DNA of 64,000 bases from Marsupella aquatica. Taxonomy: Eukaryota > Plantae > Marchantiophyta. The stretch spans positions 31,627,112 to 31,691,111 of the forward strand of contig OZ316891.1 of the NCBI GenBank assembly GCA_973895155.1, written 5' to 3'. Position 1 is the first letter of the stretch. Every line of letters starts with the position of its first letter. Both the position numbers and the translations under genes were made by a program. This document shows positions 30,156 to 63,892 of this stretch, piece by piece. The notes below the pieces were generated by a model that worked only from the letters and a program-made list of their open reading frames with translations, made no database searches and was not told the origin of the DNA.

Positions 30156-30715
30156 AATCCTCTCGTCTCTCACAAAGAAAACATTGAGTTTGAAACTCAA
30201 TGTTCACGAATCCTCCTGAGTTTGTCGACCACCCCTGGGCCCATTCCCGCTTGAGCTTCCATCCCCGTCCCTGCAGCCGCCACCCGACCCTTATTTGGCC
30301 GTTGGATCTAAAACCCTAGACATCAACGGCCCTTGAAAACCCCGACTGGATGTCACGGGTCCCCCTACCCGCTTTAGACCCCACCCCCAATAAACTATTT
30401 TTTAGACTGAAGTTTGGTTAGAGTTGGGCATAAATTTAAACATGCATATTGTGGCAAATATGAATATTTACGACCTTACAAAACACGTGTCCCTGTTACA
30501 ATGAGACATGTGTACCAGTACATACATGACGCGTGTCGCATATAATATTTGTACCAATTACCCTTACTTTGTTGGACACCTTCCGTGGAATGTGTTTCAT
30601 TTTAAAAATGCCTATTGTTCTTTAAAGCAGCCCAACAATTAAAACGGGCCCTATTGTTCTTCCATGAAACTTTGGAAGTCTTCCGTCGAACCCAATTAAA
30701 TGGCCCTATACTTCG

Positions 30716-30757
30716 TCGCACGTGATGTGGGACTTCCGCGGAAGTGACCCCCCCGAG
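30716..30757 (-). repeat. Left bipartite terminal repeat of the P-like element
   Basis: TCGCACGTGATGT-N14-AGTGACCCCCCCGAG, matching 61174-61216. Confidence 0.85.
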
Positions 30758-32359
30758 CTCTTGCCGCTCTTGAATTTCATACTCACGTTCTCGCAGTTCA
30801 AACTCACGTTCTCGCATGTGAGAATCATGTTCTTAGATATCAACATCACGCTTGGCCGTAGAAGCCATCTCAGCACAACTGTTTGCCATGGTTCTCAAAT
30901 GCACTTGTTAATCACTACTCGACTTGGTTGCCTTTTGCTTCACACCTCTCTTGCTTGGGCCATAAAAGTCCTGAGGGGATGATGGTTCTCTCACTCCACC
31001 AGTATTCTCGACATTGTGTGACTGCGTACCCTCGTGTGTTGGTCCTGGGCAGTATTCCTGGCTGGTAGGGATAGACCTATCTTCATGAACCTCAACGTCA
31101 TCATCACCTGCAAATGACGTAACCTACTTGTTGTACTATTTAATAAAGGAATTAAAGATATAGGTGTTGAAAAAGGGACACTAATTTCAGTGCAAAAAAA
31201 AATTTGTGATAAAATATCACATAATCACTTGCATAAAAAAATACCAAAATATAGCTACACCGTGCAAAAAGAAACCAATGCAGAGGCAAAAGTAAGTAAG
31301 TTCTTACTCTCTGATGATAAATCAAATGGATTCTCTTGTGCATTTCGGTCCATAGAAGAGATGTCAGATATGAACTTTTTAGGTGGAGTGATGCGTGGAA
31401 TATCTGCATACCACTCCTGGACCAACAATTGCTCATACAGATCAACAGAAAAATTAGTGGGGAATCGATGGTCACGTCGGTCCTTGTCACCCATGTTAAA
31501 GTAAGAAACCTGCCCAGTTTTCTCCTTCCTTTCATAGTCATAAATTGTTTTAAACTTGTTCTCAATAAGTTGCCACTTCTTCTTACAAGAGTTTGGATCT
31601 CGAATAGGATTAGTGTACCCCTCATCCACCATAAACTTTGCCATTGCTTTCCATTTCAACTTGCTACTAGTCATTTTTTTGTGTGTTGAGCCTTCCATAA
31701 TGATAGTGTGATATTCATTCTGTTTTGTTGCAATGAGAACCGTCATCTCCTCGTCAGTCCAATCTGGCAACCATCATCAGAAAGCATGTCATCATAAAAA
31801 AGGAAAGGGTCCATAGCTCGGAAAAAAGCATTGGGAACTGTGTGGTCTGGTACATTCCACTTTGGAACCCGACGGTCCATGAGCGTAGGTTTTAGTCCAA
31901 TAGGAAGATAAATGAATCCCGCGTTGACTCCAAATGATCTTTCCTTTCCTCCTCTGATGACTCCTTTTTCTCGGGAACCCGACTTGATTAAGTCCTTTCC
32001 CCATTTCTTAGCATCTGTCACCCACTCTGGTTTCTCTTCTTTGTTGAAAGCACTCTCAATAAATTCTTGTATGCTTGTTTCCACCATGCAATGCCTTGAA
32101 GATTTACTCTTGAAGTTTCTCACATCTCTCTCAAGACCGCAGGGGCATTATCCCGGGAAGATTCTCCTGCTTGAATTGCCCTTTTCTTCTTCTTCTTTGT
32201 ACTGGTTGCATCTAGAGGAACGATCTCTTTCGCTTTCTCAACGGGAGTGACAAGGTCTGATTGGGCGGTGGTATTAGCTTCAGAAGGGTCAGGAGTAGCA
32301 TCAACCTTTGTGTCGTCAGTTGCAACGTCTGACTTTCTCCCACCTAAAGGAAAAAACAT
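30758..32359 (-). pseudogene. Harbinger-associated Myb/SANT (trihelix) DNA-binding gene, 5' part, interrupted by the P-like insertion
   Basis: WTDEEMTVLIATK..KWKAMAKFM..RDPNSCKKKWQLIENKFKTIYDYE..SYFNM trihelix pattern (31255-31770). Coiled coil REREFELREREYEIQERQE runs into the TSD. Confidence 0.75.
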
Positions 32360-32379
32360 AATACAATCAATTGGTTGTC

Positions 32380-32787
32380 AATGCACTCCGTGGCTGGTTT
32401 GCCCAAAACTTGAGAGAAGAAATCGGCAATGGCATGAAGTTTCCCTGGCTTAATATTTAACTTGTAGTCAAACTCTTGTAATAGTAATATCCACCTTGCT
32501 ACTCTTCTTGTTAAGTCTGGCTTATTAACCAGGTACTGTAAACTTTCATGATCTGTATAAAAGATTCCCTTGTATCCTAATAAATAATGCCTGAACTTCT
32601 TACAATAGTATATAACTCCTAGTGCTTCCCTCTCTGTGGTTGAATAGTTTCTCTCGGCATTGGCAAGTTGTTGGCTTGCATAATAGATGTGATGGTCCCT
32701 TCCCTTCTCATCTAACTGACTTAGTACTGAGCCGATAAAGAAGCCTGAAATGTCTACATATACATGACAATCCTTGTTCCAGTTGGG
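32380..32787 (-). pseudogene. Ty3/gypsy RNase H fragment
   Basis: Minus-strand translation reads HVYVDISGFFIGSVLSQ..IYYASQQLANAERNYSTTEREALGVIY..KKFRHYLLG..TDHESL..RWILLLQEFD..KPGKLHAIAD. Confidence 0.9.
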
Positions 32788-32789
32788 TT

Positions 32790-33539
32790 TAGGGTCTCTG
32801 CCGTTTAGGGGTCTCTACCGTGCGTGGGGTAAAAGGTCCATTTTGTGACATTTTGAGACTCTGCTACACTGTAAGATCCCAAGAGCAATGATCCTATTCT
32901 TTACTCGCGCGACACTAGCAATGTTCTTTTCCTATCTCCACAAAGCACAGGGTATTCAATAGATCTTCAGCAGTGTAAAAAGTGATATAAACAAAGATCA
33001 AAGGGCTAGAGCTCACCAGGTGATCCCTTCCATCCGTCCCAGTGGGCGTGTTACGTAACTATCGCCGAAAGTGAGGGTTTCACTCTCGCGTCAGAACCTT
33101 ACTACACTCTCTAGCTATCTTAAAGGTAGAAACAAGATTTTACTTCTTCCTGTTTACCTCTCAATTGCATAATCCGGATCTTTTGTTTCTTACTCTGCAT
33201 CAAAGCCTAATCAGCTTGTTAATCTTCAGCTCTCCTAGAGAGCCTTTGCAAGGGTAGAGCATGTACATACTCTAATAAGGATCTTCCTTAAGCACGACAA
33301 ACTCTAATTTCTCCAGTAAGTTGCAGCCCTAAGTAAGTTTACCTTCTTCCTCCATGAGTCCCGACTCCTTCACTCAAATGTCACTTCCAATATAGTAAAA
33401 TGCTCTCGAAAACAAGAGCAAACCAATAGCGCAATGTAAACCTTATCAATCGTGACCCCTAGTCTAAAAAATCTTCCAAAATCTCACAGTCCTTAGGTCA
33501 GTTCCGCCAGTTCTCACAGTCCCTATGTTAGTTCCGACA
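32790..33539 (-). mobile_element. Probable Ty3/gypsy LTR fragment
   Basis: Non-coding and adjacent to the RNase H fragment. It ends ..GTTCCGACA (TG start on the minus strand) where P-like copy 2 begins. No partner LTR or TSD is seen. Confidence 0.4.
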
Positions 33540-34844
33540 TTGTGAATGGTTGACTTGAGTCCTGATCTTTTTCCATGTCTGTCCATTGTTGTATGACAGG
33601 TTCATGTACCTAATCCGTATCCCTTACTTTCACAGCCTGTATAATTGTCCATCATGGCACACCTAGGCATGAGCTCTGTCAGATTGGTAGAAAAGGGTGA
33701 GGAGGGAGGAAAGCCTGATACGCCAATCTGTTTCATGTCCTTCAAAGAAGGCAGACTCTGGCAGATTTTTGTCTGAAAGTGTTGGTGCAGTAGAGTTTGA
33801 CTTTGATTTTTGGGATGAGAGGTTGCCTGGTCGAGTCCGGCGCTTTTCAGAGAAGACTGTTAGGGTGACTGAACTTCAAGGGACAATTTACGTGATTGCA
33901 GAGTTACCCTCAGTTGCCTTGCCTACTGAGAGGGTCACTACTGGTTCCTCTCATTCATCTACTGCCACTATGTCCAATGTGGCAGGCACGACTCCATTGT
34001 CTCAAGGACAAACGCAAGGGGTGCCAGTACAGGCTACTGTACAGCCTGTCACAAGCTCCTTTGAGTCTCACCTCATGTCTGAGGCTGCATCAAAGGCCTG
34101 GAATGATGAGTGGTTGAAGCTACGATCCTGGGTGAACCAGAAGGGCTTTGGTGAGCACCAGTGGAAAGTGCAAACATGGGATGAGGGAGGGGAGTGTCGA
34201 GGTCATCTAGAATGCTTAGAGTGTAGGGAGACTTATGGGAATGGTGGATTGCATGATTGAGGACTACCATTTTTCTCCTTTTTTCTCCACAAAAAGGACT
34301 CGAGTCCTTGCCATTTTGCATTAAATGTGCAACATATCCCTCAATGGCCAAGATTGAGGATACGTATATCAAAGGCTAGATTTGAACTGGTGAACTGATT
34401 CCATTAAATGAACTTTTTTGGATTTAGTAGGACCCTAGTAAAGCTTGCACTTGTATCCTCATATAGAGTACTTATGATGTGTTTAATGTCCTCGAGGTGA
34501 GTAGCCGTTGTTTACTTTTCAAAAAAAGGACTCGGAAGTCTTGGAAACCTACAATAAATGTCCTTGCAATCCCCGCCGGCCAGGATATTTTGAAAACAAG
34601 GACTCCAAGTCCTTCCAACTTTGGCGCGATAGTCTCAACAGTAGTAAGGACTCGAGGACAAAGGAGTATTATTGAGAGTTTTATGCCTGAGCTATCAAAT
34701 TTTACAAAGTGTTTCATGGTGGACACCAAGCAGCTTGAGGTCCATAGCCAAAATCAGTAGTGTTTGAGTGTTGGGGCAAGAAGAGAGAGCGACGAGAATT
34801 GCAAATGAGTAGGTATTTTGTTGCGCATTGCAAGATTGTCCATG

Positions 34845-37800
34845 TGTGACACCGCCGGTACGGCAAGTAATGAGTAATTCGGTCTAAACCGTGCTTAGCA
34901 CGCGCGTTAGGGGTATCTTAGGCCGCTATGACTAGCATAACGACAGTATTTAGGTAGCCATTATGAGTAGGAAATCATTAGTCAATAAGGGGAATTCATG
35001 TTCGGGCTGGCGGCGCGTCGCCATTCGCACGCCCGGGTTACGAGCGTGGAGGGGCCCCTCCCTCGGGTCCGTATAACAAACTTTGGGAGGCGTCCACTGA
35101 CACGCGGTGACTCAGACCGGCGGAGTGGCCGGTACACTACAAGCATGAACGGTTCAGTCTATAGGCAACGAGGAGATGTCGGGGGATCGACAAGCCCTCA
35201 AGGTATAAACAGGGAGCCGACCCTTTGTAGTGCACCAGTCCATCAGTCCACGCGCCAACTTCGACCCCAGCTCTCTCATTCGCTCTTAGTCGCCACTACT
35301 ATCTCCTCTGAATATTGCACACGATCCTTTCCAATTCGGCCATTCAATTCTGGACGCAGTTCCTATCTACCGGAAGACACTTGGCCGACTCATTGAAACA
35401 CGCCAACCCGCGCCGATACAAAATTGAATGCGAGTACAAGAGAGCCATCCGCCTAGCAGGATGACACCACTACATCCTTAACTTTGACTACCCGTCTCAG
35501 AGCGAGCTTTACCGACCAACAGAGGTATCTGGGTACTTCTTCAACGGAGACAAATATATCGGTTTCTAGGAAGCATTGCTTCGGCTTCCGGACGAGGTCT
35601 TCAATATCCCGGGTACGATCGACTTGCAATGACATCACTTTGACCACATCCCTGCTCAGGTTCGGGCTATCATCAACAGCGAGTCCAGCACTACCCGTTC
35701 GACAAGGTTGTCTGCACTTGTTTCGGAGAACTTCTACCAGCACTTGTAGAGCTTCATGGGAACTAGACCCGCAACCGCCGGCGCCAACCCAGTCGACCCC
35801 ATACCCGTACCCGCACCAACGCAGACTCAGGCTCAGGCTCAGCTTCAGTCTTAGTCTCAGCTTCAGTCTCAGTCTCAGCCTAGCCAACCCCCACCACTGA
35901 TCGCCCCGCCAGCAGTACAAGTACGCTCCATCATCAACGCTGTGGACCTTAGCGATGACGACGAGGCTACCCCACCCTTGCTCAAGCGGCCCAGAGGAGC
36001 AAACACTCAGGGGGCCGACACTACATCGTCCCCTCCCCATGCTCGGACCCAAGGAGCGGCTCCAACAAACAACACGGTGACCATGGCCGCCCCGGGCCCA
36101 ATACTAACGGCGGTAGCACTACGTACCTATGCCCGATAGAGAGGATGGGGAGGTGTCACCCTCCCCGAGCCAGTCACGAGGGAAGACGAGGAAGGAACCC
36201 ACCACTGCATCCGGGTTACCATTGGCCACGGTAGCCGTGGCCAAGGTGACAATGCACCGCATGGGGGAAAACGTGCATAAGAACATCCTCCATCCCAAGC
36301 ATGCGGTGTACCTAAAGACTCAGGGATTCGAGCACCTCGCCTCTCTCCCCTGGAACACTTGCAGGTACTATGGGGAGGACATGACAGAATTCGTCAAGAA
36401 TTATGATGACGCACGTCAACATACTCGGCTGTGGGGAAGGAATATGTCCCTCACGGAAGAACGGCTCAAGATGATCTTCGGATTACCCGAAGGTGACCAT
36501 CGAGTCGAATCAGGGCTCCCGGGGGCAAGGGAGCCAAGTACCAATCCTCAAGTTTTCCCTCAGAGGGAGCAGTGGACAACGGGTTCATGATGAGGACCTG
36601 CCTCATCCCAGAGATAGCTGAGCAACTGGAGTTCCAAAGGTACGCCCTCCACATGATGGAACCCCGGGGGGAGATCTCCGCCGCCCAGGTTATCCAGGTC
36701 GAGAACTATCGACCTAGGAAATGGGCGTCGTACTTCGCTAAGAAATTCCATGAAGAGATGGAGCGGCGAAGGAAGACGCTGTACATTGGCGGGAAGGCGT
36801 ATTTTGCTAGCCACATTGAGATCATTCTTGAGTGGTACGCTCGGTTTGATCGACAAACCCTTCCCCGTGTCAACGTTACAAAGCTGGTCCCAGCTAGGTG
36901 GGTTTTCCTGGCCTTGGAGAGACGGCCCCAACCCGAGGCCCGAAGTCCAGCGGACACGCAAGCTTCACCCACCCCACCTCCACAAGTAGCAGAAGTCATA
37001 ACCGAGGAGGTACCGAATGGGTTGGTTATCGCAACTGTAGATGCGATCCAATAGGTCGGGCTAAGTATAGAAGTCGGTACAACGGAGGTCTTACTCGAGC
37101 CTGGGTCTCCCAAAGACCCACCGGTGGCTATTCCGGAGAACCGGACATTGCTGCAGGAGGACACTCCAGCCCCTTCCAACATTACGTCCCCAGGGCTGGA
37201 TGTCACTGCCCCGGCCCCTGCGCGTGTTGACGTCTGCCCGTGCCCAACTCCGGACAGGCACAACCTGGACCACCCGGAACTCTTCGTACCGGGTACATTT
37301 CTGAACGGGCTTCTGGGAGATTTCTCTCATCAAATTTCCCGGGATACCGGGGAGTTCATGGCCCGGAAGGTAGCCTATTTCTTCAATCAGGAGTTAGTTG
37401 CCGCAGTAAAGGTAGGTCGGGTCTAGTTAGAGGCCCTTCAGAGGATAGAGCGGTACCGGGTGGAGTCCGTATACTTAAAGAACAAAGTTGCGGCTCAAGA
37501 GGCTGAGCTTCTCCAACTACGACCCAAAGTTGCAGCCGCCGACGAGTTGTTAGCAAAGGCGCATGCCCTTACCGCCCTAGCCAAGCAGGCCAAAGCTGGG
37601 AACGAGGCCGAGATTGCACGACTCCGGAACCAGATTGACAATTTGAAGAATGAAACTGTCATCTGGCAGAAAGACCTGGAGGAGGCCAAAGAACGGGCCC
37701 AGTGGGACACTGCAGAGATAGCCACGCTACAGGCCGAAGTGGCGCGGCTCCAAACCAAAGCCAAGAAGCGGGACCAGCTAGCGGGCAAGCTGACGAGCGA

Positions 37801-38875
37801 CGCCCAGCAGCTGGAGGAGGCATGCCAGGAGGCAGCAGAGGAGACAGACGCGGCAAAGCGAGAGAACGAATCTCTGCTGGACTAGGTCCAGCTCCTCAAG
37901 GTGGACAACGACAGACTTTGTAAGCAGCGGGATGGCCGCTCCCACTCGGGCGGCTCTGGCAAGCGTGCCAGGCATTAGCGGCAGAGTAGGAATAGAATAG
38001 GGTTAGGAATAGCTAAGTCAGGCTATTGGGACAGGCACCTGCCTTAGTTATAGCAGCACTACCATGCTGTCTAGCTTGCGTAGATTAGGATCTTCTAATA
38101 AGACACAGCCATTTTTTGGCCTGATAGTCAGAGTAGTTAGGACCTAAGTCAGCGAATCTTTGGGCGGGAGGACACTCCATTCCTCGGCCCTTAGTGTTTA
38201 GTGCACCCCTCAGTAGAGGCAGGGGGGTTTTTAGTCTCAGAGTTGGATATCCGGGGTATGTGTGGGGAGTCCCAACCTCTGGGAGTGAAAGAGTACCAAG
38301 GGGAGGGGGTAGGACTAAGCTCGCCGGGCGAGTGCGGAGCCAGGCTCCGTTGTAGTATACTCCCTCGGCCTTGAACCTGTTCATTCTGGAGCTGTCGGGT
38401 CAACCAAGTGTACGCACATGTCCCCTATGTAGTAAAATCCTTTCCCATTATTTCCTTCGTGTAAATCAAGATTGTATGCTTGTGCGCGTGTATGTGTGTG
38501 TGAATCTCGTGTATAGGTGACAACGCCGGGCCGAACGCACTACCCGAGTCATGCACGGGGTGCAGCTTGCGGGTATGTGGTTGCGAGCACGGGTTGAGGA
38601 CCTGTATCATAGAACCCGGATCAAAGGCGGACAACACAAAGGCTTAGAAGTCCTTAAGCCGGGGTCGATCCTATTATCGACTTAGGTACATTCCGGTGGC
38701 GGAACACAAACCATACCTAGGAGATGTCCGTATCTAATAGTAGGCGCACTTAGCGCTAGTTTACGTGAATTAGGTGCATTACGTTCTTCCCTCCCTGCCC
38801 GAACCCTCATATTTACGAAGGAGGTGCCCGTTTAAAGCTGAAGCCCGAGTTAAGGCCAAGGCTGATGACGTGACA
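34845..38875 (+). mobile_element. 4031-bp TG..CA solo-LTR-like element, copy B
   Basis: 5-bp TSD CCATG at 34840-34844 and 38876-38880; collinear end to end with 17446-21443. Confidence 0.9.
35312..37978 (+). pseudogene. Decayed homolog of the 877-aa ORF
   Basis: ORF fragments match copy A. The start codon is ATG>ATA and there are multiple stops and frameshifts. Confidence 0.9.
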
Positions 38876-39427
38876 CCATGTCGGCCCAGCCCATTCAAAC
38901 CATTGAGATAATTACAGCCCGAGAGCTCTCATCGTAGCAGAGTTTATTGGCAACAAAGGGAAGCTAGTGGAGGACGGCCAACTTACTTTTGGAAGCGATT
39001 TCATTGTTTTTTTCACATCTGAGCACTTCGACGGGTCGCTGACATAGGTTTGGTTTGCACATGATGATCAAACTCTCAAAAATGATGGCTAGCATTCTTT
39101 CAATTCCTTAGCTGACTTTTTGATAGACCGTCGTATGTACCCCTATCTGTTCACGTGCTATTAACACGGGATTATCCGTCAGCTGCATTGGTTGGAGTAA
39201 TGCAACCTTCTAATTCCATTGTGTAATGCATGTAGGCCGAGCGGGCGGTTTGTTTGAAGCCAGCGGAGGAAATTTTACCCGTCATTGGTGATTGAATCCA
39301 ACCAACATCCATTTTCAATCCGTAGCAGTCCTGAGGTAATAATGTAGGTGTTGGCCCGATACGCTTGCTTATACTTTGAGTTTTCACCACAACTTTCCTC
39401 TGTACTAGCGTATTTTTGAATGCCGTC

Positions 39428-41925
39428 ATGGATGCCTCAACTGATAATCTAGAAGCTCCTAGAACTTCTACTCTTGAGCTAGGAGAAATGGAGATAGTTA
39501 CAGTCCCAGACCCTGTTCTCCCTCGTAGCAGCAGAGTCCGGTCCACTAGCAAACCAACCATGTATGCCTCCCAAGCTACAGATCGTGCTTCTCCCGACTC
39601 TCCAGCTCTTGTAGAGAGTATCAAAAGTGCAAAACCAAAGACTAAGGTGGAGCCGCCTCTAGAGCCATGGGATCCTAAAGATTATGTGAAGGACGCAGAG
39701 TATTTCCATGTCACATTTGGTCTTCCAAATGAAGGTGTTAATCCTCATAAGATCAAAGACATTTCCAAAGAGCAATTGGCCAAAGTGTTTGGAGAGAAAG
39801 ACAGGAATGGGTATAAGTTGAGTCTCTATGTGGGCCTCCCAATTGAGGAGGTTTTGCAGCTATCCCAAGTCGTGGATGGTTATGATGCACCAGTGAATGG
39901 ATTCTTGTCTTTCACTTTCATCAAAGGGGCATATGCAGAAAGGATCCAAAGGTGAAAGGTGGACTGGTGTGTGTATGCGGTGTCGAAGCTGAAGGGGCAA
40001 ATTGCCCAATGGGAGCGAGATGGCAAGGGTAAGCCAGATGGGCCTCCTTGCGTTAGGAGGTTGCGTCTGTATTCGCCACCAGTGCCTCAAGAATTTAGTG
40101 AAGATACTCAGAATCGGGTTAGGAAAAAGATTTGTATCAAGCATCAAGTTCCAGGGGACAAAGCTCATCAGGGGACAACCGATTTAGGAGCGGATTTTGG
40201 TAGCAAGGGAAGCGCACACGAGAGCGCACATCCCAAACCATTGGAGGCTGCCCTTTCTGCCCCCTCAACAACACTTCTCCCTACCAAGCCTATTTCTCCT
40301 GTTGTCCCTATAGTGCCAAGAAGTCTTTTGCTTGCTATTCTGGATGGGCAAATAGTCACGATCAAATGCAGTCTTAGAGACACCCATGAGAGCATCAGTA
40401 AGGTTCAGAAGACTGTGCAAGACTTGGAGGCAGCAAACGAGGATCATCCAAGACTCAGCTCTGGTCTGGTGGACCAACTTCAGAAACTACAGCAAGAATT
40501 GCAAGATGTGAGAATCAAAGTGAAGGCCGCAGACACCTTGTATGATGACATGTCAACGGAAATAGAGCTTGAGGAGCTCAAGGGAGAGCAAGATGAGGAG
40601 GTACAATGTCAGACCATATATATACCTGTCCTTGTGTCCATCAAACTATCTGTAGGTTGGATATATATGTTTAGTTGAGATGTTGGATTCAATTTAGCAG
40701 GACGAGGCATTGATGCATTGACGATGAGCTGCAAATAATGTTGTCATGTGCATATTTTTTTTGGGGTGGGCAGGAAAGCTATGTTGTTATCCTGCAACAA
40801 AAGTTGCAGGAGGGTAACAAGGCCATGGAGGCTTTGAAGGAATCTGAGTCATATATCCTAAAGGGGATGGCTACATTTGAGAAGCTCATTGAGACCAGGA
40901 AGAAGCGCTTTGAACAGTTACCACACAAGGTGGCTCGATTGAAAGTTGTGGAATCACAGTTGGAAGGACATGTGAAGCGTTTGGAGTTGGCTGCAGCAGC
41001 TCAAAAGGCCGAATTGTCCATTTTGGAGCCTGTGTTGTCCAATCCATGTCCAACATTGCAGCCTCGATTTGTTCCCACATCCACTACGATAGTGGGATTT
41101 AAAGTGTTTGTGAGTAATTGTCCAGTTTGTTGCCATGGGTATCATTGTTTCAATTGGGTTCCAGCAAGTTGTGGCCACGCCTATCATCCGCATTGTTTAT
41201 TTACCTTGTTGGGGGATAAAACAAGGACAAGTTGTTGCTTTGCTTGTGGGGAACCCTTTTGTGAAGATTGGATTCAAAGTTGGGGTCTTCCAAAGAGAGC
41301 GGTAGACAAGCTACCGTCAGGTGAAGGCTCCTATATTCAGGATTTGAAGGCAACATATGGGGCTAACAGTGCCCAATTGGGCACACATCGTCACCTTTTG
41401 CAACAGATGCAGTCCACGCAAGCAGTGGTATGTGTATAACCAGACTAGGCCTACAAGTCATGTTTAGGTAGTTGGACAGTTTGAGTTTTTAGTTGGGCCA
41501 TTAAGTGAATGTCGTCATTGTGTGTGCAGGAACAAGCCGAGGTCCAAGCAACTGTGTTGTTGAACAATGTGGACCACACTAGTGTGGTGCATGAACAGGG
41601 TGCCCTTGTGGATGAGTCTCCTGAATTGCCAGTGTTCAATTCCACAGCAGCCATCGGACTGCATGTGAGGAAGAAACAGAAGCAAGAGAGTGAAGTAGCT
41701 AGCAAGGTGACCAGTACCCCATTGACATCTCTTGAGCTTGGCACCTTGCCCTTCACTCCTGAGTCTCTCTCTCATGTTTCATTCAGGCAACTGTTGAGCC
41801 TTGTTCAAACTGAAGCAGGAGAAACATCTCCTCCACAGTCCAGGAGTGCAATCCAATCCCAAGTTGTTCCTCCCAAGTCATCAAACTCCAGGAAAAGATT
41901 GCAACTTCTTGTGAGAGACCCGTAG
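39428..41925 (+). pseudogene. Three-exon cargo gene: accessory-like N-terminal domain, coiled coil and RING-H2 finger; one premature stop (39953-39955)
   Basis: Phase-0 GT-AG introns at 40601-40773 and 41428-41529 join the ORFs in frame. CPVC..CGHAYHPHC..CFAC fits a RING-H2 pattern. Confidence 0.7.
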
Positions 41926-42074
41926 CAAAAGGAAGAAGGTTTTTCTCTGGGTGCTGTAAACTGAATAATATAGAAAATTGTCTTATGTGCAGCAACCTAA
42001 ATCAGGGCAGAAAACAAGAGCCACTACTGTGAACTAGTTGTAGAGATGGGTTTCCTACCTTGTGATGTTCTTTT

Positions 42075-47945: not shown

Positions 47946-47999
47946 CTTTTGTCCTTTATTTGTTTGCCTTTGGTTGTCATTATGGTTTGTCACACTAGC

Positions 48000-48312
48000 A
48001 GGACTCGGACAACAAGGGCCAAGGAGTTCAAGTCCTTCTTAAGGACTTTCAGTTCTCCCTTGAGCACTTGAAGTCCTTCATAAGCACTTGAAGTCCTTAT
48101 TGGAGTCGTGGGGCAAGGACTTGGAGTCCTTGGGTAGAGTCCTTGGGAAAGGACTAGTAGTCCTTGGGCAAGGACCCGGAGTCCTCCCGAGTCCTTGGGC
48201 AAGGACACTTAGTCCGTCGACAAGAACACTGAGTCCTAAGTGGCTAAGTCCTTCAGTAAGGACTCTAAGGATTTACCAAGGACTTGGAGTGAGGAAGGAC
48301 TTGAAGTCCTTG
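48000..48312. repeat. Array of GGACT-N3-AGTCC palindromic motifs inside the TIR element
   Basis: GGACTTGGAGTCC, GGACTAGTAGTCC, GGACCCGGAGTCC, GGACTTGAAGTCC, GCACTTGAAGTCC and others. Related motifs occur near the left end (34296-34660). Confidence 0.75.
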
Positions 48313-51300: not shown

Positions 51301-52075
51301 GATGGAAGATTATACTGCTGTGAATGGTTCCTTTCCTACGTACAGTGTAGGATGGGTTGGGTGGCAATACTCAGTGTCCATACTTCCAAATGGAGATCTA
51401 TATGGTTTTGGAGATCAAGACCCACCTCACAATGGCAAGAAGGGAATTAACCCATTGGACCGAGTGTCTGCTATGTTAGTTCTTGGTGATCAACATGCAT
51501 CTTTGTCATATGTCACATCTGTTTATAACCATTATGCAATTCATGAGCATGGTTTGCATTGGGATGATGTGAATAGGACAGATAGACAAAACTAGGCTGG
51601 CCCACAATGAATAGCTTCCAGGAGAGTGGAGGCCTGCCTGCAGCATATGTATGAGCGACGAGATGTTCGTCATGACAGAAGCTTTGGGACCATGATATAC
51701 TTGGAGGTTTGTGCAGACTACATGGATATTTTCTTCTCTGTTAAGCATGACCTAAGAACCCGTGTTGTCTTGGCATCAAAGGTATCTTGGTTCTTCCGAT
51801 TGTAGACGCTATGGTTGAGGTATGGTGATCATTTTCCTTGGAATGGTTTTTTTTATAAATTTTAATACCGTGAAAGACCCCACGGATAGGGGGAACAACA
51901 GCCCTTAATACAGGGACAGCAACAGCACACTAGCGAGCCACAAAGATCGAGAGCCCAAAAGCACAAAAGAGAGCATCAAAGCCCCAGGGAGAGCCCCCCC
52001 TCAAAGAAGGGAAATAACACCGATCAAGAGAGCACCCATGCCCTTCCCACAGCAGCCCCCCAAAAAGCAGACCCC

Positions 52076-55000
52076 TCAATCAGCAACGCCGCCGCTAGAG
52101 GGCACCAAGAGAATCCTGTCCCCACCCCGTCTCAGCCAGATTTGCCTCGTTCCCCGCAACCATTCTTGAGCCCGGTTCAACCGAGAGCGACGCCGCCCAA
52201 AGCGTAAACCAGCCCCAACCGCATGGATGTGATTGGCAGTCTCAGCAAGCATCAGGCCCAAGTCAAATGAACGTCCCACCTTGTCAGAGAACATATGTTC
52301 ATTTCTTCCCAGCCAAATCATCCAGAGAGTCTGATATACACAAAAGATCCTAGCAGTGTGAATAGGCTCCGGTCCTGTCGATGCATCAAGAATAGCCAGT
52401 AGACCACCTCCAATGGGTAAGCGAAGCTCCGTCAAAATCCTGTCACACATCCTCCAGCAACATGAGGCATGGGAACATTCAATGAACAAATGTTGCATCG
52501 TCTCCAAGACCCCACAGCAAAGCTTGCAATTCCCAGTACCAGCCTGGATACGGAGGGCCCGTTGACCAGTAAACAATCCACCAACCAGGATCCGCCAGAT
52601 AAAGGTTTTTGCCCTGCAGGAGAGGTCAGAAATCCACAGCTTCTTCCATCCAATGCACCATTCAATTTCCGACCGGTGTGAGGACCAGCACCTATTAAGC
52701 AGCACATGAAGGCTCATCTTGGGTCTCAAGAACTGGTAGACCCTGCAGTTGGTGATTTGAAAGTCCTTGAGAGGTTCTGCCCTGTCAGACCAGCGCCGCT
52801 GTCTGGCCGGAGGATCCTTGTCCCACCTGCAGGCAGTTGACTCCCAAATTCTCCCTAGGAACGCTCTAGCCAGCCCTCTGTGCTCCCCCGTGAATCCTCA
52901 TAGCACCTGCCCCCTAAGCGGAAGGTCTTTCCAGCCCCCTGTCTCCACCGACCATCCGTCCTGAATTGATCTCATTCCCAAGCGTCCACAAATAGCAGTG
53001 ACTCCTACAATGTCCACATTTGGCAATGAATTGAAATCTATCATACATCTAATTGCATCGTTAATGCTCCAGCGTCCAGGGGCACCATATCTCCCAAGAC
53101 AAAAAGCCAGATGGGCACGCAGCTCCTCCCAAGCCTTCCATAGACCACTTGTATACCTGAGACCACCGCCTGCCCTAGGAGTACAGAGCAGAAGCCTATC
53201 CTTGAACGTGTAATTGTTTCTTCTGATCACCTTGTAATTCAACCATCCCATTAAAGATAAGTTGGCTGCCAGCATCTTCGACCATTCCCTGTCTGGATAC
53301 TCTAGGGCCTTAGTGAACCATTGTGATAATAATGCATTGGAGTGGCTTCTGAAGTCCTTGAATCCCAGGCCGCCCTCTATTTTTGGAAGTGTCATCTTGT
53401 CCCATGCCACCAGCGGAATTTTCTTCCCACCTGCAGGATTATATCCCCACAGAAAATCTCTACTGAGGGCAATGAGTTTCTTGGCCAGACCCGCTGAAGC
53501 CTTGAGGTGCATCACATGGTAGATTGGGATGGCCTGGAGCACGTGTTTGACCAATAAGGTTCAACCTGTGAAAGAGAGGAGCTTATTTGTCCAGGATGAC
53601 AGTCGTGAGCTGATTTTATCTAGGCAGAATCTGTGCAGTTGCTCAGTCTTCAGCCCGGCCCCTTCAGCCCGGCCCCCAAGGGAGCGCCCAGATATTTCTG
53701 AACCTCCCCCATTGCACTCACTTGACAGCCAGAGTACAGCAGCCAATCCGGGATGACCTCAATTGCCAAGGGAATCACCACAGATTTTCGTAGGTTCAGC
53801 TTTGCTCCAGAACCCATTTCATAACATGCAAGCGCAGTTTGTGCCTGGGTGAAAGCTTCCTCCGTGGCAGGAATGAACATTCCAACATCATCTGCGAATA
53901 ATCTGTAGCATATTGTGAGTGTGTCCGTGATTGACAGTCCACTAAGTCTCCCAGCCTCCATCTCCGCAGCTAAGAAGTCCATCAGCGGTTGTGTCGAGAT
54001 GACAAAAAGTAGGGGCGACAAGGGGCAGCCCTGTCTCACCCCCCTCTTAAGCTCAATCATACCCGTCGCAAAACCATTGACCATTGCCTTCGAGAAAGAT
54101 CCAGCCAACAGAGCCCGTACCAGTGTGATAAAGTGGCCACTTATTCCCAGTAAGTGCATTGTGTCCCATATGTATTCGTGATTCACCCTGTCAAAGGCCT
54201 TTTCGAAATCCAACTTCAAGAAAAGTGCCTCCGTCTTCTTGTGCTGTATCCAGTCACATGCGAGCCAGGCCAGTGAGATGTTTTCCAGAATGTGGCGCCC
54301 CTGTATAAATCCGGTCTGTTGGGGGCTGATTATCTTGTTCATGATTTCTTATAACCGCAATGCCAGGATCTTAGCAATGACTTTGTACGTTGTGTTCAAC
54401 ATTGTAAGGGGACGCCAGTCCTTCAGTGATCTCTTATCAGGCTTCTTCGGAATGAGCTTTATTATCCCTTCTTTTAATGCACTATCAATCTCTCCTGTCA
54501 TCCAGAATTCTTGTATCATTTCCACCAAGTCCTGTCCCAGAAACTCCCAGCATGCGCGCAGTACTTCTGCCGTTAAGCCGTCTGGGCCAGGCGATTTGTC
54601 TCCTGGTAGCATCCAAAGCACTTCCTTCACCTCTTTAGTTGTCGGGAGAGCTTCCAATTTCATTCTCTCTGCCGCTGTAAGCGCAAATTTTGTGTGTTGC
54701 AGTAGACGTCTCCTCTCTTGCCGTCGTTCTTGTGTCTCCCTTTGTGAGGGTTCCTGCGGTGCATAAAGTGCTTGACACATTTTCTCCACTTCAAGCACAA
54801 TGCTTGCCGCCTCTGTTATCTCCGTCCCATCCTCTTTGAGAATCAGGTTCATGGTTTCTCGGGCGCGTTTAGCCTTTACTATCGCATAGAAGAACTTTGT
54901 TGATTCGTCTCCTTCTCCCAGCCATTTAATCCTTGCAAGTCTCCGTCCCTTATTAGCCACTTCCAACTCGGTTGCATGCAGTGTGTCTTCCGTTTCCGTG

Positions 55001-56033
55001 TATTCCTTGATTTCATCCTCTGTGTGTTCCTCCAGAATGGATGCTTTCAGTGCTCTCATTCTTGCTCTAAGAAACTCCATCTCAACCTCTGCCAGCCTTG
55101 GTCTTGCTTGTAACTCCATGTATTTTTGCCTAAAATTGGAGCACGCTTTTGAAAATCGCAGCACAGGGTTTGCAAATTCCCTCCTTCCTTCCCTCCAGGC
55201 TCCTTCTAGAAGCGCCAGGTCCTCCTTGTTGCTTAGAAGCGTTGGATTGGCCATGAATAGTCTCACCTTACCTCGCTCCACCTTCTGACCTGCATCTCTT
55301 AACCTCCCTTTCAGTATCACCGGGTCATGGTCTGATAACGCTGATCCTCCTTCATGCACCAGCTCTACTCTCTCCTCTAACCACCATCCCTTCTCGCTAA
55401 TGTAGAACCTATCTAATCGGGATTGTACCATTAATCCCCTTCTCATCCTTCTCCATGTGAATTGGGCACCCGTAGCGCCCCCGGTGATCTCCCACGCATC
55501 TACCAGGTCAAAGCGCGTTTTTAAGAAGCGCCAGAATTCCGCTTCTCTTTCGCCGATCAGAGGTGATCTCCCGGTTGAGTCCGCTCTTCTTTCTGTCATG
55601 TTGAAGTCGCCACAGATGATCCAATTTACCTGCGGAAGCTCATCCTTAAGCTCGTTCCATAGCAAAGCCCTTAAGTCAGCCGAGTTTGGTGCATAGATAG
55701 ATGCCACTCCATAATTGCCTCCTTCGTTCTCAATGATTATCCACACAGCTCTGCCAAGGTCCAGTTTGCCTGATGCTACCACCTTCAAAGACGGGTGGAC
55801 CAGAAGTGCCGTTCCTCCCCTGCCTTCCTCTGGTGCCGATGAGAAGTGTTGATAGTTTGAGAGAATTGTTCTCAGAGCCATGTCCAAACGGAATTGATCC
55901 GTCTTCACTTCTTGTAGAGCTAGGCATCCCAGCGGAAATCGCAGTGCCTGTACCCAGTTTTTGACGACATGTTTGCGGTTTGTCTCACACAGCCCACAGA
56001 CGTTCCATGTGGCAATCCGCATTATGTTCTCCA
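52076..56033 (-). pseudogene. LINE-2 ORF2p (EN, RT, zf-RVT), disrupted
   Basis: TWNVCGL, CGDFN, SRLDRF, SDHDP, KSPGPDG, GVRQGCPLSPLLF, LFADD, CKLC..ETMQHLFIEC. Confidence 0.95.
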
Positions 56034-56097
56034 TCCCCTCCCCCCCCCCCCGCTGCTCCCCAAGTCGAGTGGTGCACTTGGTCAGCACACCGTCACC

Positions 56098-58263
56098 CTA
56101 GATACGATTCCGTCCTCCAGGGGATAGCATCCAGCCCTGAGAGCCGCTCCCCGTTTGCTGCTCAGTCAGTCCCCCTATCAGGGAGTAGTCATCTCTCATC
56201 TTAGTTTGTGCTGCGCCTCTTTGTTCACTTCTCGGACTCCTCGTTTCAGGGCTGAGCAATCTGTTTGTCCTTGTTGAGCTTTCGCCCGCACCTGCATCAG
56301 ACATGGATCCTCGTGAGAAGTACAGCGAACGTTGTTTTTTTGCTTCACCCTTCGGCTTATCTTTATCTTCAGTTGGGGGGGTTCTCAATTATTGTTTCCT
56401 GGTTCGTGCTTTGAGTTTGCTATTCGATATGTAAGCTTCATATTCTGACATCTCTGCATCGGTGTCCCCATGGTACAAGAAATTCCCTTCGGCTTCTACC
56501 TCTAAGAGCGATCCTGGAAGCCCGAGTGTGTCTGTTCTGGCCTTCGTGCTGAATTCCGGCCCAAAGCTTGGTGCACTGGCATTTAGAACAGAGCCTCTGC
56601 GGTCTGTGTTACCTCCAGGATCCCGGGCCAGTCCACTCCCAGGTGGGAAGTCTCGCGAATTCCCCTTAGTCCTAGTCGGTTCCCATCTCACCATGGCGTC
56701 CAAGGGTCCACGAGTGGGCTCCAGCAATTCCATCCCAATAGCACCCACATTCGGCCGTTGTGGGTTAGCTGGAGTTCCTTTGTCCGGTTCTCTAACATCT
56801 GTCGCAATGATCAGCTCCACATGGGCAATTTCCTCCTCAACTGAGTTTTTCCGGATCGTGTTCGCCTGCCGCTCTTGGTTCTCCCTGAATTTAACCCGGA
56901 CCATAGCATTCTCTTGGGCCTTTTGTATCTCTTCTGGGTCAGCCTCCGAGTGTCGTTCGTCGTCTTTTTCATCAGGTATTTCCAGCACACTCGTCGGCCT
57001 CTGCCCTTCATCTCCTTCTCGACAGCTGCGGGCTAGATGCCCTTTCTTATGGCATTTGTAGCAGTGGTAAGGAATATTGCGGAAGGTCACCGGTTGCCAA
57101 ATTACTATATCCTTCTGAATTTTCACTCGAACACTTGCCGGTATCTCCCTGTCAGTGTCCCATAGTATGCACGCACGGTCATGTGGGTAAGAACTGAATT
57201 GGTCTCCTTGAATGTAGTATAGTAGGGTGCCAAGCGCGCTTGCAATTTTCCTTCTGCATCCTTCCAGCTCCAAGGCTCTAAATGGTAGCTCAATCCATAC
57301 TGGCAGTTTGGTGTAAGACTCATTTTTTATGTCAAAGGTTGGATCCCATGGGAAGGTGTATACAAATCTATTTTCCATAAACCATGGCGCCCCATTCAGT
57401 GCCAGATCCCGATGATCAGGTTCTTCAAAGATTACCATGTAAAAATTTTTCCCCACAAACTTGACTTGTAGCACCGGCCAGCGCCCTTGGCTAGTCATTT
57501 CGTCTTCTACCCAGTCTCTGAAGGCTGGAAGCAATGGGGTTCTGTCTGTGAAGTAGCATAGCAAGGCACAGTTATATAATTGCCTCACATTCATAGTTGC
57601 TTCCGTCATGTTCCATTCAACTGTGGCAAACAGCTTTTTGTCAAGGTCACCCTTAGAGCGGTGTGCTACAGCTCTCAGAATTCTGATACATTCCTCCGAT
57701 GTTTCCTCCTCTTCAGCTCCTTCGCGGCCCCATGTATCAGGATTCCGGGTACCATTTGAGATTCCACAGATTCCAGGACCCTCTCCCCTGAGCTCTGCAC
57801 CTCTCAGGCTACGTCGTGTCTCTCCATCCAAGGCTGGGACCTTGTCCCGAGCTGAGCCGCCGCCATTCTCATCCTCTTCCATGTCCATCAGATCGTCCTG
57901 TATCTCCCGTTGTGAGCCGGCTGAGCCCCCCCTACTCTCTCCCTGTAGGCCAGGATTGCCTCCTCCCTTTCTCTCCCGCCGTGGTCTGTCCCCATCATTC
58001 CGCGCATCTTGCGCCGAGAATTGGTTGCACCTCCCCACTCCCTCCTCTCCGAGTTTTCCTTTATTCTGAGAGGCCAAACCAACCAGATTGGTCTCGCGCC
58101 CTCTCACCCCCTGAAGCGTCCCCGTTCTAGTCTGGACAGCCATCGGTGTAGCCACTCGGATGTTCCTTGATTCAGAAAGACGTCCATTCCGATCGCTTCT
58201 TCCACGAGATGTGGTTTCTGAGCGCCCGTAGTAGTCCAATCCCTTTTCACCTTCGCCCGACAT
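56098..58263 (-). pseudogene. LINE-2 ORF1p (DUF4283-like plus CCHC) with an in-frame stop at 56389-56391
   Basis: APWF..WDPTFDI..PVWIELPF and CYKCHKKGHLARSC; homologous to LINE-1 ORF1. Confidence 0.9.
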
Positions 58264-60692
58264 TAAATTAATGTATGCAATGACAGTCAGACGGCGTTAA
58301 TAAGATGTTCGGGGCAGTGCTTACCTTGTAATCGAAGAGGGCTCCAGGCTCCTCTCGAGTCCACTGGGTCCAATCTCATTAACCAAGATGTCCTTCCCGA
58401 ACTATTCCATAATTCTCCCGTCAGAATAGAACCACTCAGGCACACTTTGTGCCGCCTTAACTCTTCTCTGCATGTTCCGCCATCCTCTTTGGCAATGTCA
58501 GCTCCAAACACTTTTAGGAATCTGAGTGCCGCCACTCGCTGTCCAATCCGAGCTTGCAGACACCAAGGTCCGTTGCCGTAATCCACACCGTTTGTTTCAG
58601 TCGCCCACTGTAGCACCCCACCAGATCGATGCGAACCCCTGTTCCAATGTGTCTACCTTTTAATCCCCGCCTCCAAAAGTGGCAGCGGGAAAGGTGCTCC
58701 CGCTAGACTAACGCATCGGCTCATCCACCACCCCTGGCTCCAACTCTCATGACCGGATCTCCACAATTGTGCTCCCGCAATCCAGACTAGTATTCCACCC
58801 TAAAATAGCAGAACCGGCTCTAAAGCGGATCCCGATCGTAGCGATGGCGAGAGAGAGCAGAAAAAGCTTCGTGCAGAAGCAGGGGTCACCCTCGTATCGA
58901 TTCCACCCCTCTCGAGAAGCTTTTTGCCCCTCTCAATCTCCTTCTGGAAGGTCAAAACGCTCATGGATGAGCACAAGTCCCTCCGCCCTTCTTCGCAAGT
59001 CCACTGTCAGTTCCAATCTCCAGGGCCAGGTATGGTGATCATTTTGTGACAGGGAATGCTGGATCTATCACAAAGAAGAATATGATTTATGTGCAGGTTT
59101 TCCATGATATCAACATGTCTTGTCATTTTGTAGTATTGTTAATCTGTGCCTTTTGGGACAAGTTCCCATATCTGCAAGTTCCATTTCACTTGCTGGGATC
59201 AGATTGGTGTGAGATATTTTTCAGCAAGGTAGGTGGCATGAGTGGCCATGAGAGAAATTATGACTTTGGATCTCTATTGGACAGTGCAGTGGGACTAAAT
59301 CGACTAGCTGGATTAGAGTATGGACCAGAGGGATTGAAGATACGTCGATCACATGATAAACAGAATCATGTTTGGGCAACTTTACATCCTCTGGATGAAG
59401 GAGAACAAGCTCCAAATTTATTTGATTACTCTGCAGTTCAGACTAATGAGCTGATTGTTGATGCTCTAAAGGAAGGTTTGCAGGAAGCAAAGGATTTGTT
59501 GTGCAAGCTGAACATGTCACCAAGGAGTTCTTTGCCATTAGCGAAAAGACGATGGTGGGTTCATCCTTGGGAGGTGGAGGCAGAGACTTGGCCGGATACA
59601 AGTGTCATGAAAGAGGTTGTGTTATGTGATGATGCTGAAGACATAGTTGAACATCGATCTACTGTAGGCCCTAGACCTGAGCCCCCAATTGGAGAGTTTC
59701 TAGATTTTGAAGATCCTGAAGAAGATCTCAATCGGATTGATTCATGGGACACTCTAGACAGTCAGGATTGTATTGAGCCACTAACAGTTGATGATTGTTC
59801 GATTGAGGTGGACACTAACCCATTTTGTGAGATGGAGACACTAGGACATGAAGTAAGGCATGTCTTGGCTGGAGTTCAAGCAGACTTAACTGATGTGCAG
59901 ACACCCCGGTCAGTAGTGTCTACTATAACTTATGAGGGAAGGACTATCTATAAGTCCACTCTTGTGAGTCAATTGTGCTGCAATCCTTTCATGTCAAAGG
60001 ATAGGCTAACTAGGATAGCCCAGAAGACCTATTACACTACTGGTAAGGAGAAGGAAAATGGTGACTCTATGACTTGTTTGGTTGACATTGGTACTGATAT
60101 AGCAGTTTTGTTTGAGTCTGCTGCAGAGGTTGGTCCTTCTACCAGATCATCCAAGTCAAAGAAGAGGAAGAGAATAGATAAAGGGCCTGTTGTTGATGCA
60201 ACATCTGAAAAGAAGGAATATTGGTTGGGTAGGATTGAGTTTATGATATAGAAGAATGGCTCCCATTGGGTCAGACGTCGGAAAGCAATAGATCTGTTGG
60301 ACAGGCCTGTGCCTGCAGTTGGACAGAGTGGAAGTGTGTGTCGCTTGCAGTGTAATTGATACAAATCTACTGGTAACAACAAAACTTTGTTCACTTGTGA
60401 TGCAACAGATGGACAATTGATATTGAGATGGTAATTTCAAATGTGAACTTGACAATGAAGTCTGGGATAGTTGACAGAGTGTATGTACTAGATGCAAGTG
60501 ACTTGCAAGCTTTGACTACATACATTCAAAGTATGAGTAAATTGTGATATATAATTGACTATTGTTTATTAAAAATAGTTTGTTGTGTGTGTATGTGATG
60601 CATGTGTAGGGTTAGTGGGAGGGAGTAGAGTAGGGGATGGCGGATTGGCAAATTGAGATTTATACTCAATCAGGGGTTCAATTCCCCTCCGC

Positions 60693-60900
60693 CATGTGGA
60701 CATCATCATGCATGAGTCTGTGAAGGAAGGTAGAGATGTGGACATCATCATGCGGGAGTTTGTGAAATAAGGTAGAGTATCGATGCCTTGAATAGGCAAC
60801 CTATGATGTTCGGTTACCTATTCATAGTATCTGGCACCCACCATGCTTCACTATTCAAGAGTGAAAACTACCATGCTTCACTATTCAAGAGTGAAAACTA
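60693..60900. repeat. Subterminal tandem repeats of the P-like element (imperfect ~42 bp x2; perfect 30 bp x2 at 60841-60900)
   Basis: ATGTGGACATCATCATGC..GTGAA..AAGGTAGAG x2; CCATGCTTCACTATTCAAGAGTGAAAACTA x2. Confidence 0.85.
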
Positions 60901-61173
60901 CAAGTTGTTGGGTGATGATGAATGCAATTTACAAGATATTCAACTTCATGATGTAAATTCATTGAATGTATTGGACATGCGCATCAATTTGCACAATTGG
61001 CTCTACACTATTGAGGTACTTTACTTTCCTTAATAGGCATTTTTTAAATCATCATAAAACTTTCCAAAACGTTTTATAGGGGTAAACAATTCAAAAAATG
61101 GTCGCTTTTCAGAAAGTAAGGGAGTGGGGGAAAAAAATTCACTTTAAAGTTAGGGGTTCCAGACCCTAAAACA

Positions 61174-61216
61174 TCGCACGTGATGTAGTGCCCTACATAC
61201 AGTGACCCCCCCCGAG
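61174..61216 (+). repeat. Right bipartite terminal repeat of the P-like element
   Basis: TCGCACGTGATGT-N14-AGTGACCCCCCCCGAG. Confidence 0.85.
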
Positions 61217-61326
61217 GGCAAGAGAGAACTTTGGGTACAACAATGAAGACAACATCCGAGCAGATGACACGTTTGACTCATGCCCTTATGGAGAAGCTTG
61301 CAAGTTCTTCACGACCTTCACAATAG
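61217..61326 (+). pseudogene. 3' end of the Myb/trihelix gene (continuation across the TSD)
   Basis: After the TSD the frame of ..EIQERQE continues RTLGTTMKTTSEQMTRLTHALMEKLASSSRPSQ*, convergent with the nuclease gene. Confidence 0.7.
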
Positions 61327-62867: not shown

Positions 62868-63189
62868 TGTGACAAAATAGTTTGAGCTGGAAAGGCCTGC
62901 ACAATGAATGACATGTCTTTGACGTTGTCAATAGTGAAGAGAAAAATTGAGGGCAATAAGAAAGTGCAAGCAACTAACAAATTGTAGGCACATAAGTGAG
63001 GGAAGTGCTTGCCAAAAATCATCACTTATTTGTGAGTCCTTGACAGTGAAAAAAGCTTTGCAGTACACCTTCGTTTGCAAGGCCACATCTTGTACTATAC
63101 CTGGCTTTCGTATGGCCTACCTTCCGCTATACTACACCTACTATAATATTTCTTGGCCCTCTACTGCCCGAGTGAATTATGTAGTGTTT

Positions 63190-63863: not shown

Positions 63864-63892
63864 GGGCCGATGTACATGCAAAACGGCCCTTA
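63864..63892. mobile_element. Possible Harbinger right terminus (..ACGGCCC plus TTA)
   Basis: A GGGCC-type terminus followed by TWA, ~1 kb upstream of the nuclease. The partner end is not seen. Confidence 0.35.

Follow-up and report, generated by a model that had tools for sequence, protein, structure and literature searches.

How can one gene, together with the target site duplication (TSD) of the transposon that interrupted it, come to be divided between two inverted transposon copies? This question is raised by a 64,000-nucleotide stretch of the liverwort Marsupella aquatica (contig OZ316891.1, positions 31,627,112 to 31,691,111; the window), in which a Harbinger Myb gene is split into halves carried by opposite strands, each half joined to one end of a P-like DNA transposon. 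Net of later insertions, the P-like element measures about 9.4 kb and runs from its left end at 30757 through a PHD gene and a transposase gene to its right end at 61216. Its ends carry a terminal inverted repeat (TIR) of 14 to 15 bp and a 13-bp subterminal match, and each terminus occurs once in the window. The transposase gene is present twice, in opposite orientations, as copies A and B. The reading that we favor, at a probability of roughly 0.6, is that inverted sister copies of a dead P-like element came to bracket an interval that was then flipped, which exchanged their TSDs.

The 8-mers CTCTTGCC (30758-30765) and GGCAAGAG (61217-61224) are perfectly reverse complementary; a match at all eight positions of one fixed site has a chance probability of about 1.4e-5. 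The plus-strand terminus GTGACCCCCCC(C)GAG precedes both 8-mers, as does the subterminal CGCACGTGATGT, which was found in the window solely at 30717 and 61175 (0.11 occurrences expected; 0 of 100 shuffles reached 2, for a pattern picked from the window itself). The minus-strand 5' half of the Myb gene matched Pfam Myb_DNA-bind_4 (PF13837) with an E value of 6e-9, and the 8-mer makes up its final codons. The plus-strand 3' half begins in the codons of the 8-mer, keeps the frame, and ends with a stop at 61326. An earlier note on this DNA had pointed out both the complementary 8-mers and the reading frame that crosses them, and both observations were borne out.

We compared the window with public contigs of four runs (X1 to X4), which may include the window's own sample and are therefore a test of the assembly rather than a view of other individuals. 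In X1 and X2 contigs from other Harbinger copies, the Myb 5' half continues uninterrupted into the 3' half through one 8-mer, which is like the window's at six of eight positions, with 19 of the next 20 positions alike (loose end at 30789). An X1 contig corresponding to 30725-30865 crosses the junction of terminus, TSD, and Myb gene without a difference, extending 33 letters to one side of it and 108 to the other. The earlier note had worried that the 8-mer might be part of the P-like terminus; this was ruled out, since other copies of the terminus run into different flanks in two X1 contigs and five X2 contigs. The uninterrupted Myb contigs and the differing terminus flanks show that the 8-mer is the true 8-bp TSD of the P-like transposon and that the two halves are a single Myb gene.

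Self-comparison of the window returned three inverted blocks (5341-6996/60682-59028, 6981-9462/51833-49310, and 9458-10166/34243-33536), which together form a single 4.8-kb stretch of the transposase gene, on the side of 5341-10166 in copy A and of 33536-60682 in copy B, where a 15-kb TIR element and an L1 interrupt it. The two copies differ at 87 of 4,839 columns (Kimura two-parameter distance [K2P], 0.018, or 1.8%), with blastn identities of 96.8 to 97.9%. If substitutions accumulate here at a rate near 1e-8 per site per year, the split would be about a million years old.

Against intact homologs (tblastn), both copies carry the stops DRQN* (7221/51593), PQ* (7206/51608), and CN* (5666/60357) and the frame break KHE* (8601/50170), and relative to family contigs they share a 1-base loss at 33749. 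That loss and the changes at 33606 and 33619 are common to A and B and absent from the family contigs listed. Of four listed substitution positions at which B and the family contigs disagree, copy A agreed with B at two and with the family at two. Each copy also has stops of its own (two in A and four in B) and private indels. The differences between A and B comprise 15 synonymous and 56 nonsynonymous changes (pN/pS, 1.05), a ratio that ruled out divergence under selection. The shared lesions, common substitutions, and neutral decay argue that A and B are best read as sister copies of one element that was already dead before they parted.

Later insertions differ between the copies. A CACTA-type element ends at 5340 in copy A only, next to its 3-bp target ATT (5341-5343), and covers the remainder of that copy; copy B runs through this ATT without a break. 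The 15-kb TIR element (34243-49309) and the L1 at 51835-59027 are found in copy B only. The earlier note had proposed, from three of the shared lesions (DRQN*, KHE*, and CN*) and the differing later insertions, that a single insertion was inactivated before it was duplicated; comparison with intact homologs upheld the lesions, the insertions differ as described, and the five common lesions and the pN/pS value bear out the order of events.

Divergence between the arms is uneven. A tract at 49739-50938/9033-7831 has 5 differences in 1,200 columns, compared with 82 in 3,617 columns elsewhere, and 0 of 5,000 permutations matched it. In this 1.2-kb tract the inverted arms are five times more alike, and gene conversion across about 41 kb is likely. 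The arms thus probably exchanged sequence after they parted, by conversion or by a crossover at the tract, as far as the pattern of differences indicates. CpG and CHG content was ruled out as the cause of the low divergence, its value lying between those of the two flanks. The KHE* break is not independent evidence of age because it lies inside this tract.

We propose the following history. The 9.4-kb P-like element entered the Harbinger Myb gene, where its 8-bp TSD is seen, and decayed in place, as the lesions common to both copies show. A copy would then have landed a few kilobases upstream in opposite orientation, using transposase from active relatives, and recombination between the copies would have inverted the interval, with the homogenized tract (49739-50938/7831-9033) as the candidate site of exchange. 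Later, a gypsy insertion and deletions would have taken out the left arm of copy B and the start of the Myb gene. The L1, copia, CACTA, and TIR elements are seen as insertions, and their order, like that of the central deletions, is partly a reconstruction. Alternatively, the hop and the inversion could have been a single event, a hybrid element insertion that joined the ends of two sister chromatids and left the same product. We put the hop followed by recombination at somewhat under even odds and regard the one-step route as doubtful.

Both routes to exchanged TSDs, recombination between inverted copies and hybrid insertion at one site, are described in PMC2775673, as is the point that hybrid element insertion by sister-chromatid ends leaves copies that are initially identical. 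Local hopping has been described for P (PMC7776569). In rice, a Ds copy was found 1.1 kb from its parent and inverted, a second Ds was present within the tested fragment in 2 of 270 lines, and the interval was inverted in 33 of 300 regenerants (PMC3239180). In the window, the interval between the copies carries one TSD and the Myb 5' half, and the ends show the exchanged pattern: the left end is followed by the inverted TSD and an inverted flank, and the right end by the forward TSD. Thus, two copies of the same family stand in opposite orientation (4.8 kb; K2P, 0.018), and the first TSD is split, with one copy reverse complemented together with its flank. An inversion is also supported by the finding that, within the window, duplication is confined to P-like sequence. 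Sister status is supported and a homogenized tract is present, a picture in which recombination and hybrid insertion look alike.

Several points weigh against an inversion. The second TSD would belong to two ends that are out of view, the right end of copy A lying beyond the CACTA element outside the window and the left end of copy B having been deleted, and the model requires extra central deletions. A 4-base match at 33537-33540 would be due to chance under an inversion (about 1 in 256). In Drosophila, the hopping range of P is 50 to 150 kb, not a few kilobases (PMC7776569). The order across 30 kb is that of the assembly. The homogenized tract shows exchange but not a crossover specifically and is compatible with every rival, and its window size was picked after looking at the data (sizes of 800, 1,200, and 1,600 gave P values of 0.0064, 0/5,000, and 0.0002).

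The rival that survives best, which we nevertheless consider unlikely, is that the whole Harbinger locus, with the P-like element nested in it, was duplicated head to head by a local Harbinger hop with cargo or by a segmental duplication, and that deletions in the center afterwards took away both Harbinger left ends together with the Myb 5' half, TSD, and left arm of copy B. It is consistent with the split TSD, the common lesions, and neutral decay; one central loss could explain the breaks at 31771 and 33536; and the Harbinger left end is indeed not in the window, where we found no partner for the candidate Harbinger terminus. The earlier note had described the locus as an inverted duplication of a Harbinger locus. 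The P-like element does occur in two inverted copies, but that part of the description which concerns Harbinger was not borne out within the window: no Harbinger sequence is seen twice there, the Myb 5' half, Myb 3' end, nuclease, and Harbinger end each being single, and a mirror copy would have to lie upstream of base 1. A split TSD is equally the product of duplicating the P-like element by itself and inverting what lies between its copies, an outcome on record that the earlier note had left out of account. The duplication would also need a move of about 13 kb by a family whose contig depth is much lower than that of the P-like family, the depth being only a hint.

The center likewise offers no clean join. 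Intact Myb copies depart from the window sequence at 31771, within the coding region, and copy B begins at 33536, lacking the left arm and the PHD gene. The 1,764 bases in between hold at least three foreign fragments, among them the gypsy remnant at which the earlier note had placed the break. Three of the five local junctions are seen in public contigs. The two that the earlier note had singled out (its 32370 and 33540) stand: X2 contigs cross 32371 with 1 difference and 33536 with 0 differences (depth, 14), reaching only 30 letters on the repeat side, one below our bridging rule, as a contig that ends in a repeat would. No bridging of the junctions at 31771 and about 32790 was found among the contig matches listed, and X1 gave no cover at 33096-33511 in the approximately 57% of that run that was covered. 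Mis-assembly at these three junctions is unlikely. The X1 junction contig has a depth of 128, which we considered and then dropped as evidence that the left junction exists twice: on matched contigs the depth of X1 was about 4 to 9 times that of X2, and unique X2 contigs had depths of 14 to 22.

A fold-back or template switch is improbable, in our view more so than a duplication of the locus. A broken end in retroelement DNA upstream of the Myb gene would have primed at GACA (10163-10166/33537-33540) and copied the transposase, copy B would never have had a left arm, and 10167-33535 would be a single-copy spacer. The 4-base identity falls right at the start of the duplication, no deletion of the copy B left arm is required, and a 3-base overlap is present at 32369-32371 too. 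The same four bases, however, are the start, on the minus strand, of what is likely a 5' long terminal repeat (LTR), whose other end and leader lie at 32870, in which case 33540 would be a plain integration junction and copy B would once have been complete; by a rough estimate, microhomology and integration are about level as readings of 33537-33540. A stable chromosome would moreover demand a second switch. Within the window, an inversion, a duplication of the whole locus, and a fold-back look alike, and they differ in the DNA past the right end of copy A.

It is very improbable that two unrelated insertions of a nonautonomous subfamily, with lesions that they already carried, lay inverted by chance and recombined. 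The P-like family has many copies in the runs, and such a route has been documented for Galileo (PMC2775673), but A and B have changes in common that the listed family contigs lack (over 707 bases of the duplicated stretch and the immediate flank, at few sites). Finally, although the region is nearly all repeats, the junctions at 31771 and about 32790 lack bridging among the matches listed, and the long-range order comes from the assembly, an artefact that joined repeats of different places is hardly credible, given the X1 contig across the terminus, TSD, and Myb gene, the X2 contigs through 32371 and 33536, copies that are 1.8% apart with private insertions bearing their own TSDs, and the fact that a mis-join would not yield the halves of one gene with complementary TSDs.

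A transposon-bracketed inversion has close counterparts in flies and rice. The Galileo inversions of Drosophila buzzatii (PMC2775673) likewise involve two inverted P-superfamily copies, exchanged TSDs, and breakpoints that were colonized later. There, two diverged subfamily members inverted a chromosome segment, and the TSD is 7 bp, whereas here sisters with common lesions flank a few kilobases of transposon DNA (23 kb when what later entered the left arm is counted), the TSD measures 8 bp, and only two of the four ends are visible. The rice case OsRLG5-161 (PMC3239180), where two Ds copies lie 1.1 kb from each other in opposite orientation, shares with ours a plant host, a local inverted sister followed by inversion, 8-bp TSDs, and a similar scale; it concerns a hAT element (Ac/Ds) in a transgenic tissue culture line, whereas ours is a natural, decayed event of a P-like element. 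With hybrid element insertion by the P element (PMC2775673), a single step likewise produces an inversion; the two copies at its borders start out identical, with the original TSD divided between them. In the window this route gives the same picture as a hop plus recombination, the new TSD being outside the view.

Several lines of evidence predict that the transposase, which the earlier note had correctly called P-like, belongs to the P superfamily. Foldseek with the model of a homolog (mean predicted local distance difference test score, 53) gave the Drosophila P transposase (E = 3e-5), and these were the only matches at E ≤ 0.001 (2 of 500). In the Atlas, the best match (0.95) was to TNP-like families. 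The motifs AEDET, SDGD, DPPH, and GSDCCE occur in this order in the window translation; D173 and D175 were invariant and D220 and H223 nearly invariant among 18 homologs. The superfamily is characterized by an RNase H-type core, a D, D, E triad, and a D(2)H motif (as cited in PMC3698922), and the triad and D(2)H appear to be present here, as assigned by motif. The 8-bp TSD, measured at one insertion, and the TIR fit the 7- to 9-bp TSD and TIR of the superfamily. Pfam Tnp_P_element (the P-element helix-turn-helix) scored above the cutoff in 1 of 33 longer relatives, and TNP-like_GBD, the GTP-binding insertion domain, was a weak match below it (E = 0.13; 1 of 12 homologs), with a helical insertion in the model. 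A sequence search of PDB with the transposase alignment returned 0 matches.

The element shares with Drosophila P transposase and THAP9 (PDB 6p5a and 6pe2) a predicted fold, the order D, D, D(2)H, E, the 8-bp TSD, and a short TIR; it differs from them in lacking a THAP domain, in an identity of 12%, in a TIR that starts with CTC, and in a second gene, with a PHD finger. No THAP domain was found in the window open reading frames or in 45 relatives, and we therefore call the element P-like rather than canonical P. THAP domains are confined to animals according to PMC7776569. The transposase carries zinc finger-like motifs in place of THAP. Three longer relatives (P0041, P0053, and P0072) carry terminal Tudor, SAP, or C1 domains, and from these three, chromatin- or DNA-binding additions would seem to recur in the clade.

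The PHD gene is part of the P-like family because family contigs, which skip the copia, bridge the L1 site and tie the PHD side to that of the transposase. A search for longer proteins related to the PHD frame found none (weak evidence), and 0 of 54 metagenome loci with related transposases had a PHD match; no TIR-plus-TSD pair was found in the 19 of these loci that were scanned, and the terminus pattern had 0 matches in the metagenome contigs. A profile search recovered 2,891 transposase relatives at E ≤ 0.001, and the named homologs came from the liverworts Riccia and Calypogeia (41 to 59% identity over the segment searched). The P-like terminus was much deeper than the Myb gene in three runs (in X1, 24,717 compared with 300 to 1,400); contig depth is no measure of copy number, and it only hints that the P-like family was the more active of the two.

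The coordinates of all features are collected in Table 1. The window is almost entirely transposable element DNA (L1 with DUF4283, copia, gypsy, and Harbinger). The Harbinger locus resembles PIF/Harbinger in its Myb/SANT gene and its DDE_Tnp_4 nuclease. Of the paired TIRs and TAA/TTA TSD of PIF/Harbinger, the window shows one candidate terminus followed by TTA, which we take to be an end from the known PIF/Harbinger end motifs, and no partner for it. The locus differs in that the copy is dead, split, and without a left end in the window.

Table 1. Features of the window, in order of position
Feature	Position	Strand	Evidence
CACTA-type element in copy A; one terminus in window, probable extent to base 1	1..5340	-	CACTAGTAGAAACC at 5327-5340, minus strand
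Copy A: P-like transposase pseudogene (start ~10032, intron ~7873-7963) and upstream noncoding stretch	5341..10323	-	tblastn with intact homologs, 29-69% identity by segment; blastn to copy B
Homogenized tract in copy A, pairs with 49739-50938	7831..9033	-	Difference density, permutation
L1 long interspersed nuclear element (LINE) in copy A 5' arm, 12-bp TSD	10324..21515	+	Pfam DUF4283, endonuclease, RVT_1, zf-RVT
5' arm of P-like element with NSD-type PHD-finger gene, single copy in window	21528..23685	-	Pfam PHD_NSD, E 4.7e-8; Atlas PHD_NSD clusters, 0.91
copia element, identical 138-bp LTRs, TSD AAACA	23686..29034	-	Pfam; empty-site joint 23685-29060 in X2, X3, X4
Left (5') end of P-like element; minus-strand terminus CTCGGGGGGGTCAC	29040..30757	-	Many family contigs with other flanks
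8-bp TSD, inverted copy	30758..30765	-	Sequence; spanning X1 contig, 0 differences
Harbinger Myb/trihelix gene, 5' half, broken within coding sequence at 31771	30758..31771	-	Pfam PF13837; X1, X2, X3 contigs diverge at 31771
Fragment of repeat, broken reading frame	31772..32371	-	Several contigs in three runs; X3 contig diverges at 32371
gypsy reverse transcriptase-RNase H fragment, cut on both sides	32369..32790	-	Pfam RT_RNaseH, E 3.5e-33; X3, X4 contigs diverge at 32369; X2 contig 32342-32743 agrees with window
Likely 5' LTR (TG..CA, 33540-32870) and primer-binding-like leader	32821..33540	-	X3 contig matches only from 32821; X2 contig 33010-33565, 0 differences
Copy B: P-like element without left end and PHD gene; right arm to terminus 61216	33536..61216	+	Sequence comparison
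Copy B transposase pseudogene, three pieces	33536-34242, 49310-51834, 59028-60682	+	Sequence comparison
15-kb TIR element in copy B, 26-bp TIR, 4-bp TSD GAAT	34243..49309	.	TIR/TSD
Homogenized tract in copy B	49739..50938	+	Difference density, permutation
L1 LINE in copy B, 17-bp TSD	51835..59027	-	Pfam, TSD
8-bp TSD, forward copy	61217..61224	+	Sequence
Harbinger Myb gene, 3' end, single copy in window	61217..61326	+	Sequence, contigs
Harbinger nuclease pseudogene, one copy in window, in convergent orientation to Myb; 5' boundary approximate	61510..63100	-	Pfam DDE_Tnp_4, E 2.4e-11 and 7.5e-12; Plant_tran, E 5e-6; stops in translation
Candidate Harbinger terminus, then TTA	63875..63892	-	Presumed from PIF/Harbinger end motifs

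Some of the inserted elements have features of their own. At the site of the L1 in copy A, contigs of X1 and X2 join 21516 to the sequence at 10290-10312 (loose ends). The CACTA terminus CACTAGTAGAAACC has no partner in the window, and its stretch holds a 92-bp direct repeat (2275-2366 and 3184-3275) and a Cys-rich frame (44-490). In the center, the minus strand of the repeat fragment at 31772-32371 shows a splice acceptor-like site and a disrupted reading frame; a search with the frame at 31773-32147 found no homolog among longer proteins (weak evidence). A short 17-bp tandem unit with a TTTAGGG-like motif, which may be filler DNA, lies at 32787-32821, where the gypsy RNase H fragment meets the LTR leader.

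The 15-kb TIR element, whose TIRs are alike at 24 of 26 positions, holds a gene that looks spliced (39380-41925) and includes coiled-coil and Cys/His-rich regions; the frames scanned gave no Pfam match to a transposase. It contains a copia element (42075-47945, with identical 197-bp LTRs) and a TG..CA element (34845-38875). This copia, which has a single 1,575-amino-acid open frame, and the one at 23686-29034 are 60 to 65% alike, and both would be very recent because the LTRs are identical within each. The 4-kb TG..CA elements at 17446-21443, inside the L1 of copy A, and at 34845-38875 are 88% alike, with 5-bp TSDs (CAAAC and CCATG), short inverted ends, and no internal direct repeat; the former has an 877-amino-acid open frame with only weak coiled-coil matches. 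Each looks like either a very long solo LTR with a gene or an unclassified element.

The event itself would be a new instance of a known rearrangement, a transposon-bracketed inversion, on features that can be tested. It alters only dead transposon DNA by a mechanism documented in flies and rice and is minor by itself, a clean fossil of inverted sisters flipping and homogenizing DNA within a pile of repeats. A stronger claim, that a non-seed land plant hosts an abundant and recently active P-superfamily lineage with two genes (PHD plus transposase) and no THAP, and that this lineage produced the locus by one-step hybrid element insertion, we regard as doubtful; it would concern a host group for which we found no P family described in the part of the literature covered, with Repbase and Dfam outside its scope, and for which the part of the classification table covered (PMC9033089) has no bryophyte P family. 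The main value of the locus is in the high-copy P-like family that it exposes, which lacks THAP, carries a PHD gene of the chromatin reader type, and has relatives in liverworts. If absent from Repbase and Dfam, this family could widen both the host range and the anatomy of the P superfamily.

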